This document shows positions 1 to 458 of a DNA stretch of 458 bases, one piece after another (positions within the stretch are counted from its first letter, which is position 1; every line of letters begins with the position of its first letter). The notes under the pieces are model-generated. The model saw nothing but the letters and a program-made list of their open reading frames with translations, ran no database searches and had not been told where the DNA came from. This DNA is from Escherichia coli. GTDB lineage: Bacteria > Pseudomonadota > Gammaproteobacteria > Enterobacterales > Enterobacteriaceae. The DNA lies in assembly GCF_003334255.1 (NCBI RefSeq), contig NZ_QOWU01000235.1; one strand, given 5' to 3'. A program made the position numbers and the translations under genes.

Positions 1-458
1 CTTCCCAGCTGGCTGTCAGGTTTTGGTGTACCAAACGGCATGTTCTCCTGGTAAATCTGCGCCCCCATGAAGTTTTCATTCATGGCAAGGTTCGCAAACG
101 GACGCAGAATGGTCGGTGCTGCGTTTTTCAGCAATGCCCCCGACAACGTTTCCGACGTCTCGCTGCCGATCGGGCTGAATGCCCCCAGGATACCGCCGAC
201 AACATTACCGGCAGCACGTGAAGCAGTCAGGTCGCCCGCTGCCACACCTTCAGCTGTATGACCAAGCAGGAAGAACACGTTGTACCCGTAAGGCAGAGGA
301 ATACTCCAGTACTCACCGGCCTTGCCCCCGAACATCGATTTCATGATGACGAGGTTACGCTCTTTCACATGAGACGGTACTTTGTCGTACCAGTTAACCC
401 CGTCATCATCCTCACCCGCCACACTGCGGTTAAGCGAGCCAAGCAGATAACCCGCTCC
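1..458 (-). CDS. Partial CDS (internal fragment, both ends outside the window) encoding a Gly/Ala-rich hypothetical protein; family not assignable from sequence alone
   Basis: Seen in sequence: reverse-complement frame starting at nt 458 is open for 152 codons (nt 458..3, with 2 nt of the next codon at 2..1). Translation: GAGYLLGSLNRSVAGEDDDGVNWYDKVPSHVKERNLVIMKSMFGGKAGEYWSIPLPYGYNVFFLLGHTAEGVAAGDLTASRAAGNVVGGILGAFSPIGSETSETLSGALLKNAAPTILRPFANLAMNENFMGAQIYQENMPFGTPKPDSQLG. The other two minus frames reach stops quickly (TGA and TAA within roughly 30 codons of the window's 3' end). A 152-codon stop-free run at about 55% GC is unlikely by chance (roughly (61/64)^152, under 0.1%). Codon usage is enterobacterial-like: CTG is 8 of 15 Leu codons, with CCG, AAC, TAC, TTC and GGT/GGC preferred. 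No start or stop codon lies in the window, so gene boundaries and full length are unknown. Confidence 0.85.

Follow-up and report, generated by a model that had tools for sequence, protein, structure and literature searches.

The window analysed here, a stretch of 458 nucleotides from Escherichia coli, is an internal fragment of the gene for a giant polyvalent virion protein; it is read over its whole length (positions 1-458) on the minus strand and codes for aa 2456-2607 of 2,794. Within it, a segment rich in small hydrophobic residues (positions 129-248, minus strand; aa 2526-2565) occupies the middle of the LPD38 domain. In our estimation the most likely role of these small residues, with a probability of roughly 0.6, is the close packing of short amphipathic helices in the capsid-stored form of the protein. 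What the aligned homologues of the family conserve is a small and hydrophobic pattern on one helix face together with the FSP-I-G loop, and not the GxxxG spacing for which the segment was originally singled out. Gene, protein and domain were already catalogued in public databases, which leaves little novelty, and the GxxxG pattern is a detail peculiar to this lineage. What is new with respect to the Pfam entry is that LPD38 belongs to a larger module of ~900 residues that is conserved together and that is C-terminal in nearly all of the best 150 matches.

All 458 bases of the window match, at 100% identity, both Escherichia phage GER2 (MG710528) and prophages of several E. coli chromosomes, and ~180 Stx-converting phages (including 933W, VT2-Sakai, Min27 and POCJ13) match at 93-95%. 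In one of the perfectly matching prophages, that of E. coli SCU-104, it falls inside an 8,385-nt minus-strand gene (11439-19823 of the locus L001) whose product, WP_174147770.1, carries the RefSeq name 'LPD38 domain-containing protein'; the orthologues are L0134 in 933W and vb_24B_48 in φ24B. Minus-strand frame 1 has no stop codon over the entire window. When compared with 933W there are 30 nucleotide differences, 27 of them at codon position 3 of this frame, and just two amino-acid changes, a pattern that shows purifying selection on minus frame 1 and marks it as a real reading frame. The open reading frames of the plus strand and of the other frames (for example, 64 aa at 67-261) were rejected as coding, having stops and 8-29 residue changes each against 933W. 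An Rfam search of the window gave zero matches at E ≤ 1 and no direct repeats were found in it; an RNA or repeat explanation was likewise rejected, and the lone 15-nt imperfect inverted repeat was taken as chance.

With respect to gene order, the giant-protein gene stands at the end of the late region of φ24B, with the terminase, portal and tail genes upstream of it, and it comes after the tail-fibre genes and lom; the same neighbours are found at the SCU-104 locus and at a second locus (L002). It is thus a late, virion-type gene of a phage with portal-terminase packaging. Its product also has the organization of a phage-type polyvalent protein, with several unrelated domains on one very large polypeptide: LPD5 (aa ~1051-1200), LPD1 (~1361-1440), MuF_C/PBECR (~1750-1839) and LPD38 (2477-2682). 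The initial annotation had named phage tape-measure and ejection proteins as possible homes for such a segment, and these two suggestions fared differently. A tape-measure gene belongs to a long-tailed phage, where it is flanked by the tail-chaperone and distal-tail genes and sets, through its own length, that of the tail; here the host phages are podoviruses (Sepvirinae) and the gene closes the late region, neither of which fits. The ejection protein, on the other hand, was an apt choice: the φ24B orthologue was detected by mass spectrometry in purified virions, although it is absent from the cryo-EM map, and its authors propose that it is an ejection protein helping to form a trans-periplasmic conduit (preprint 10.64898/2026.04.10.717836).

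The match to LPD38 (PF18857) is high-scoring and spans the full length of the model (hmmscan E 1.5e-48, 165.8 bits, positions 2-189 of the 189 in the model, aa 2477-2682), and the N-terminal two thirds of the domain are encoded by positions 1-395 of the window (minus strand). LPD38 was defined by Iyer et al. (2017, PMC5512222) as a member of a set of 40 'large polyvalent protein-associated domains', their functions unknown, and according to these authors it is confined to polyvalent proteins of the phage type. To delimit the family we made an exhaustive HMMER search with aa 2400-2794, in which 5,999 cluster representatives matched at E ≤ 1e-3. For the best 150 of these, nearly all matches end at the C-terminus of the protein, most of the proteins have 2,000-5,000 residues, and the homology spans aa ~1890 to the C-terminal end; the conserved unit is therefore a C-terminal module of ~900 residues, of which the Pfam domain covers only ~206. 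Among cultured phages, the module is present in Stx phages, ~60-kb Vibrio phages, Ralstonia GP4-like and Burkholderia Bcep22-like phages and one Bacteroides phage. The N-terminal domains of these giants vary, being LPD5, LPD1 and MuF-C/PBECR in the present case. Other resources added little: no family was found in NCBIfam, and PHROGs returned unknown-function families only, along with a weak 'DarB-like antirestriction' label, which goes back to N-terminal regions of other giants. A search for homologous proteins gave mostly contig-end fragments and nothing further in the way of annotation. PDB sequence searches, both with the protein and with the family profile, produced only low-complexity or coiled-coil noise, and no relative of the ~900-residue module was found among solved structures.

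The segment itself, residues 71-110 of the minus-strand translation, reads GVAAGDLTASRAAGNVVGGILGAFSPIGSETSETLSGALL; it had been located correctly, except that the string originally quoted for it begins one residue early, at E70. Our recount agrees with the 21 Gly and 16 Ala reported for the 152 residues of the window translation, and the three GxxxG spacings are indeed there, at window residues 71, 84 and 88, which correspond to G2526-x3-G2530 and G2539-x3-G2543-x3-G2547 of the giant protein. The dominance of small and hydrophobic residues is equally genuine, with G, A, S, V, I and L accounting for 30 of the 40 residues, the highest value for any 40-aa window in all 2,794 aa, and with Gly at 13.8% in the window as opposed to 8.2% in the whole protein (binomial p 0.013). 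The spacing is another matter, since 10% of shuffled segments have at least three GxxxG (p about 0.10), the five found across the window have p 0.11, and a shuffled version of the whole protein holds a 40-aa window of this kind in 54% of cases. Thus the composition of the segment is above chance and the GxxxG spacing is not; the original observation holds as one of composition, not as one of a motif.

Conservation leads to the same distinction. Of 147 aligned C-terminal regions, which are 35-70% identical to the query, 102 are without GxxxG in the equivalent stretch, so we call the spacing non-conserved; it is peculiar to the Stx-phage and Salmonella branch. Position 2526 is Ser, Ala or Glu in most of the homologues, G2539 is kept as Gly in only 41, and G2543 is replaced by Leu in 56, with Gly not even among the top three residues there. 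The flanks of the segment are, by comparison, nearly invariant: EDDDG at aa 2471-2475, K-V-P..V-K-E-R-N, IPLPYGYN at 2508-2515, LGSFSPIG at 2546-2553, P2570 and NENF at 2582-2585.

The structure prediction and homology search that the initial annotation had proposed as a check gave a confident fold, with a helix-turn-helix-loop-helix over the segment, and no homology to any solved fold. The AlphaFold2 model of aa 1890-2794, built on a 57-sequence alignment, has a mean pLDDT of 86.6 and a pTM of 0.84. Moreover, BFVD contains viral proteins, predicted independently, that share this 900-residue fold (TMq 0.6-0.9 at 13-40% identity); E. coli phage PTXU04 and Ralstonia phage Alix each contribute their giant protein to this set.

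Following the protein through the window from its N-terminal side (all coordinates on the minus strand), the model first shows a moderately hydrophobic 24-residue helix, aa 2446-2469 (model residues 557-580), the last 14 residues of which are encoded at positions 417-458. Its family consensus is AQKIAVGMxAGSYALAMLNR, and its KD19 of 1.35 is close to the family median of 1.32, with 12% of homologues at 1.6 or above. The acidic motif E-D-D-D-G comes next (aa 2471-2475; 399-413), with D2472 in 142 and D2474 in 143 of the 147 sequences, and it is followed by the aromatic/proline motif IPLPYGYN (aa 2508-2515; 279-302), where P2509, P2511, Y2512 and N2515 are kept in 145, 146, 146 and 144. This latter motif is part of the most octanol-favourable 19-mer of the protein, aa 2505-2523, at -8.7 kcal/mol in a Wimley-White scan. 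A predicted amphipathic helix, aa 2515-2528 (NVFFLLGHTAEGVA; 240-281; model residues 626-639, pLDDT 83-91, hydrophobicity moment of the family peaking at 100 degrees), then ends in the first GxxxG of the segment. The turn AGDLT (aa 2529-2533; 225-239) is non-helical in the model; G2530 is Gly in 105 and Ser in 29 of the 147 homologues, and position 2532 is charged in 69% of them. The two remaining spacings, GNVVGGILG, are carried by a predicted 16-residue amphipathic helix, aa 2534-2549 (ASRAAGNVVGGILGAF; 177-224; model residues 645-660, pLDDT 75-84). Beyond it there is a loop in which S-P-I-G precedes an acidic and Ser-containing stretch (aa 2550-2559; 147-176; P2551 in 147/147, G2553 in 128/147, S2557 in 120/144), modelled at a pLDDT of about 67, the confidence being lower (67-75) over aa 2540-2559 as a whole. 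Two short helices, aa 2560-2568 and 2571-2581 (81-146; model residues 671-679 and 682-692), surround the invariant P2570 (147/147), and the N-E-N-F motif (aa 2582-2585; 69-80; N2582 in 144, E2583 in 128 and F2585 in 125 of 147) completes the series.

It is in the 16-residue helix that the nature of the conserved pattern is most easily seen. One face is small or hydrophobic and conserved (A2538, L/I2541, A/S2544, L2546, G2547, S2548 and F2549), while polar or variable residues make up the opposite one, with a charge at position 2536 in 79% of homologues and with variation at both 2540 and 2543. Over the segment the hydrophobicity of the family is periodic at 95-100 degrees, as in amphipathic helices, and the positions that are mostly charged in the family are 2525, 2532, 2536, 2558 and 2566. 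We would therefore regard the segment as structural, a succession of amphipathic helix end, turn, 16-residue amphipathic helix, LGSFSPIG loop and short helix in mid-LPD38, in which Gly, Ala and Ser may, by their small size, allow tight contacts between short helices where the module is most hydrophobic; the burial that such core packing implies we infer solely from periodicity and conservation. LPD38 is in turn one part of the ~900-residue module (aa ~1890-2794), the constant C-terminal portion of the giant polyvalent proteins of phages. Presumably this module brings the protein into the capsid and out again via the tail, with the variable N-terminal domains as its cargo. The many invariant polar residues of the module (Asn, Asp, Glu and Arg) might just as well belong to an enzyme or form a binding site.

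What, then, of the membrane? The specific reading of the initial annotation, a transmembrane helix whose tandem GxxxGxxxG drives helix association in the bilayer and perhaps forms a channel, can appeal to the presence of both motif sets in this phage and its closest relatives, but we consider it highly improbable. By the usual criteria, a bilayer-spanning helix has ~19 or more consecutive apolar residues, with KD19 ≥ 1.6 or a negative octanol energy. Here, the longest predicted helix of the segment has just 16 residues with charged residues on its flanks, KD19 reaches a maximum of 0.98, the best 19-mer has an octanol energy of +4.18 kcal/mol, and there are four charged residues (family median 3); indeed, no window with KD19 ≥ 1.6 was found anywhere in the 2,794-aa protein. 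Nor does the segment behave as a glycine zipper: at a cut-off of E ≤ 10, none of the Pfam Gly-zipper models (YMGG/OmpA/Omp) matches the last 1,200 aa of the protein, while the 83-aa product of a neighbouring gene, which serves as a positive control, matches Gly-zipper_YMGG at E 2.2e-6. The central Gly of the tandem motif is most often Leu in the homologues, and its spacing, as seen above, is within chance and is lost in the majority of the family. Helix packing driven by GxxxG in a membrane, and a transmembrane helix as such, thus find no support in the segment.

The same criteria were next tried on ejection proteins of podoviruses for which membrane insertion has been reported. The control proteins T7 gp14 and gp16 and N4 gp50, gp51 and gp52 are also without a KD19 ≥ 1.6, save for one C-terminal stretch of N4 gp50; the 'TMH' regions of T7 gp16 have KD19 maxima of only 1.39 and 1.44 and residues 224-278 of N4 gp50 one of 1.29, all of these regions being Gly/Ala-rich. 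Yet T7 gp16 and the N-terminal domain of the N4 virion RNA polymerase (vRNAP) are both reported to insert into membranes and have a globular form prior to ejection; residues 224-278 of the N4 protein go into nanodiscs (PMC12633501), and the TMH regions of T7 gp16, according to a review (PMC8954989), refold once ejected. Because T7 gp16 and the N4 vRNAP also fail the classical criteria, the lack of a transmembrane helix, or a soluble fold, is not decisive against a membrane role, and we have dropped the hydropathy threshold as a disproof of membrane activity. In this regard, it is perhaps relevant that no other 136-aa window of the protein is as hydrophobic as aa 2446-2581 (mean KD +0.24 vs -0.63 overall; G+A+S 0.33; maximum KD19 1.35), which hold the flagged helices together with the 24-residue helix and the aromatic PLPYGYN stretch, so that this wider region may have a latent membrane role. 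The corresponding values (mean KD; G+A+S; maximum KD19) are +0.10, 0.35 and 1.39 for TMH I of T7 gp16 and +0.69, 0.47 and 1.29 for residues 224-278 of N4 gp50; given this resemblance to membrane-active regions, the island may have a second, post-ejection conformation.

Such a latent insertion, in which the island at aa 2446-2581 would be soluble in the capsid and, after passage through the tail, would refold and enter the inner membrane, is in our opinion somewhat unlikely, albeit the most serious of the alternatives. In addition to the similarity in composition, and to the gp16 precedent of regions that are globular before ejection, it is consistent with the packaging of the φ24B orthologue in the virion and its proposed role in a conduit, as well as with the recurrence of the LPD38 island in the family: among 111 full-length homologues the most hydrophobic window is in this region in 43, in the N-terminal 600 aa in 61 and elsewhere in 7, with a median rank of the LPD38 window at the 99.5th percentile of the protein it comes from. 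An N-terminal island with a glycine zipper would then be the partner of aa 2446-2581. The giant protein has a stronger zipper here than in the flagged segment, aa 408-424 reading G-AAF-G-AAM-G-APF-G-AVA-G, though with only weak Pfam Gly-zipper matches (E about 1), and the 111 homologues have 53 strict GxxxGxxxGxxxG in their first 500 residues, a 26-fold enrichment, against 9 in all the rest and none in the C-terminal 905 residues. However, the core of any large globular module will also look like a hydrophobic island, and the flagged segment falls short of the wider island (KD19 0.98; +4.2 kcal/mol), with charged positions that the family conserves. Neither sequence nor fold similarity was found to gp16 or to any other solved ejection protein. 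Furthermore, far better membrane segments occur in small proteins of the neighbourhood: that of the 83-aa gene two genes upstream, the positive control above, ends in NIGTGIGTGAAMGAAVGGLPGAAIGAVIGGLAGSLF, with eight GxxxG and a KD19 of 1.69. The protein of a 218-aa gene further upstream has a Gly-rich C-terminal tail too. There is also a doubtful third alternative, to which we give only a small chance, in which LPD38 is an enzyme and the segment lines its catalytic or ligand-binding site, with the FSPIG loop and the Gly-rich start of the helix binding a phosphate or a substrate. The near-invariant polar and aromatic flanks (EDDDG, KERN, PLPYGYN, FSPIG, NENF, N2623 and D2637) argue for it, since their conservation exceeds what a purely structural role needs; but LPD38 was not among the LPDs that Iyer et al. 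(PMC5512222) judged to be potentially enzymatic, no enzyme was matched by fold or by sequence, and a nucleotide-binding motif of any known kind is lacking. Our preferred reading of the segment remains that short amphipathic helices pack closely in the protein as stored in the capsid.

In a broader context, the giant virion protein of the Stx phages is abundant in the particles and invisible in cryo-EM maps, and how these phages cross the envelope can now be approached from a ~900-residue C-terminal module without a solved relative and from two conserved hydrophobic islands, the only two of the family, in one of which the window is located. It is conceivable, though rather improbable by our reckoning, that in ~60-kb podoviruses (Stx-phage, Bcep22 and GP4 types) the LPD38 giants serve as the inner-membrane part of the ejection apparatus, a sort of enlarged counterpart of T7 gp16. 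On this supposition, the N-terminal zipper island and the N-terminal half of LPD38, with the flagged segment in it, would refold and insert into the cytoplasmic membrane, the two inserted islands would anchor the chain of effector domains at the site of entry, and the small glycine-zipper proteins encoded just upstream would complete the channel. The constant 900-residue module, the two islands and the glycine-zipper neighbours may, in any case, be of use to research on Stx-phage entry. It may be noted that in phage PTXU04 a 2,198-aa LPD38 protein is critical for efficient infection (preprint 10.1101/2023.09.18.558157).

Considering the known systems, the protein of the window is an ordinary member of PF18857, with no difference in membership. 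To the Gly-zipper membrane peptides (Gly-zipper_YMGG/OmpA/Omp) its likeness is confined to the GxxxGxxxG spacing of GNVVGGILG; unlike them, the segment is matched by none of the HMMs and has a short, partly charged helix, and its motif is not kept in the family. The closest relatives are the orthologues φ24B gp47/vb_24B_48 and 933W L0134 of the Stx podoviruses (Sepvirinae), which have the same gene order and Pfam architecture; identity to the φ24B protein is 150/152 in the window and 2,583/2,794 overall (92%), and the GER2/SCU-104 prophage variant differs from these orthologues by point substitutions only. N4 gp50, the virion RNA polymerase, is similar in being very large (3,500 aa), packed in the capsid and ejected, and in having a comparably Gly/Ala-rich stretch at residues 224-278, but the two proteins share no homology, the giant protein is without an RNA polymerase domain, and the membrane region is N-terminal in N4, whereas the flagged segment is near the C-terminus here. 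As for T7 gp16, there is no detectable sequence or fold similarity, and the protein described here has no transglycosylase domain and twice the size of gp16. Nevertheless, both are large, mostly alpha-helical podovirus proteins stored in the capsid, with two Gly/Ala-rich, weakly hydrophobic regions, one toward each end, that stay below the transmembrane thresholds; and some of the LPD38 giants, such as gp69 of the Bcep22-like phage JC1, with LPD38 at residues 4195-4401, begin, as gp16 does, with a lytic transglycosylase domain (PMC9144972).

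The C-terminal module of the giant LPD38-containing virion protein (residues 1890–2794; L001:11442–14156, minus strand, L001 being the prophage locus of E. coli SCU-104) is conserved as one unit of ~900 residues, of which Pfam LPD38 covers only ~206. It lies at the C-terminus in nearly all of the best 150 of 5,999 matches, and its predicted structure is confident (pTM 0.84). The same fold is seen again in BFVD models of viral proteins; no relative was found among solved structures.

Within this module, the minus strand of the window (255–311) encodes YWSIPLPYGYNVFFLLGHT (residues 2505–2523), the most octanol-favourable 19-mer of the entire 2,794-residue protein (-8.7 kcal/mol), which contains the nearly invariant motif PLPYGYN. 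Since the segment is aromatic and proline-rich, a transmembrane helix was ruled out here; it could instead be an interfacial element or part of the core. A 24-residue hydrophobic helix (residues 2446–2469) is immediately followed by an acidic patch that is conserved, E-D-D-D-G (residues 2471–2475; window 399–413, minus strand). The coding sequence of the window also holds a 15-nt inverted repeat (343–357 and 395–409; arms 93% complementary, 37-nt spacer), which we take to be due to chance.

Outside the window, residues 408–424 of the giant protein (L001:18552–18602, minus strand) form a perfect five-glycine zipper, G-AAF-G-AAM-G-APF-G-AVA-G. Across 111 full-length homologues, the strict pattern GxxxGxxxGxxxG occurs 53 times in the first 500 residues against 9 times in all of the remaining sequence, a 26-fold enrichment, and not once in the C-terminal 905 residues. 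This N-terminal bias persists even though the N-termini of the homologues can barely be aligned.

Between these regions lies a MuF_C domain (residues ~1750–1839; L001:14307–14576, minus strand), for which the published readings are in conflict: a metallopeptidase that would degrade peptidoglycan (phi24B preprint, 10.64898/2026.04.10.717836) versus a PBECR-type predicted RNase domain (Iyer et al., PMC5512222).

The giant gene may belong to an ejection-protein set together with the 218-, 148-, 83- and 420-aa genes. The 218-aa product (L001:21892–22548, minus strand, upstream of the giant gene) has a Gly-rich hydrophobic C-terminal tail, SLVGAGLGAVGAYAMHKAGGSGGSGG, five GxxxG motifs over its entire length and a weak PHROG match to "virion structural protein"; the 420-aa product is coiled-coil-like. 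Adjoining these putative ejection genes on their upstream side, the prophage carries Hok/Gef family toxin and Ail/Lom outer-membrane protein genes (L001:23100–24206, minus strand). The 83-aa protein, encoded two genes upstream of the giant one (L001:21182–21433, minus strand), has a glycine zipper of 36 residues at its C-terminal end (eight GxxxG; 19-residue hydropathy 1.69). It matches the Pfam family Gly-zipper_YMGG (E = 2.2e-6), and its homologue in POCJ13 carries the annotation "bacteriocin". In turn, "a homolog of a bacteriocin" was found in phi24B virions, where the authors set it aside as a contaminant (10.64898/2026.04.10.717836); alternatively, the 83-aa protein may be ejected and insert into a membrane.
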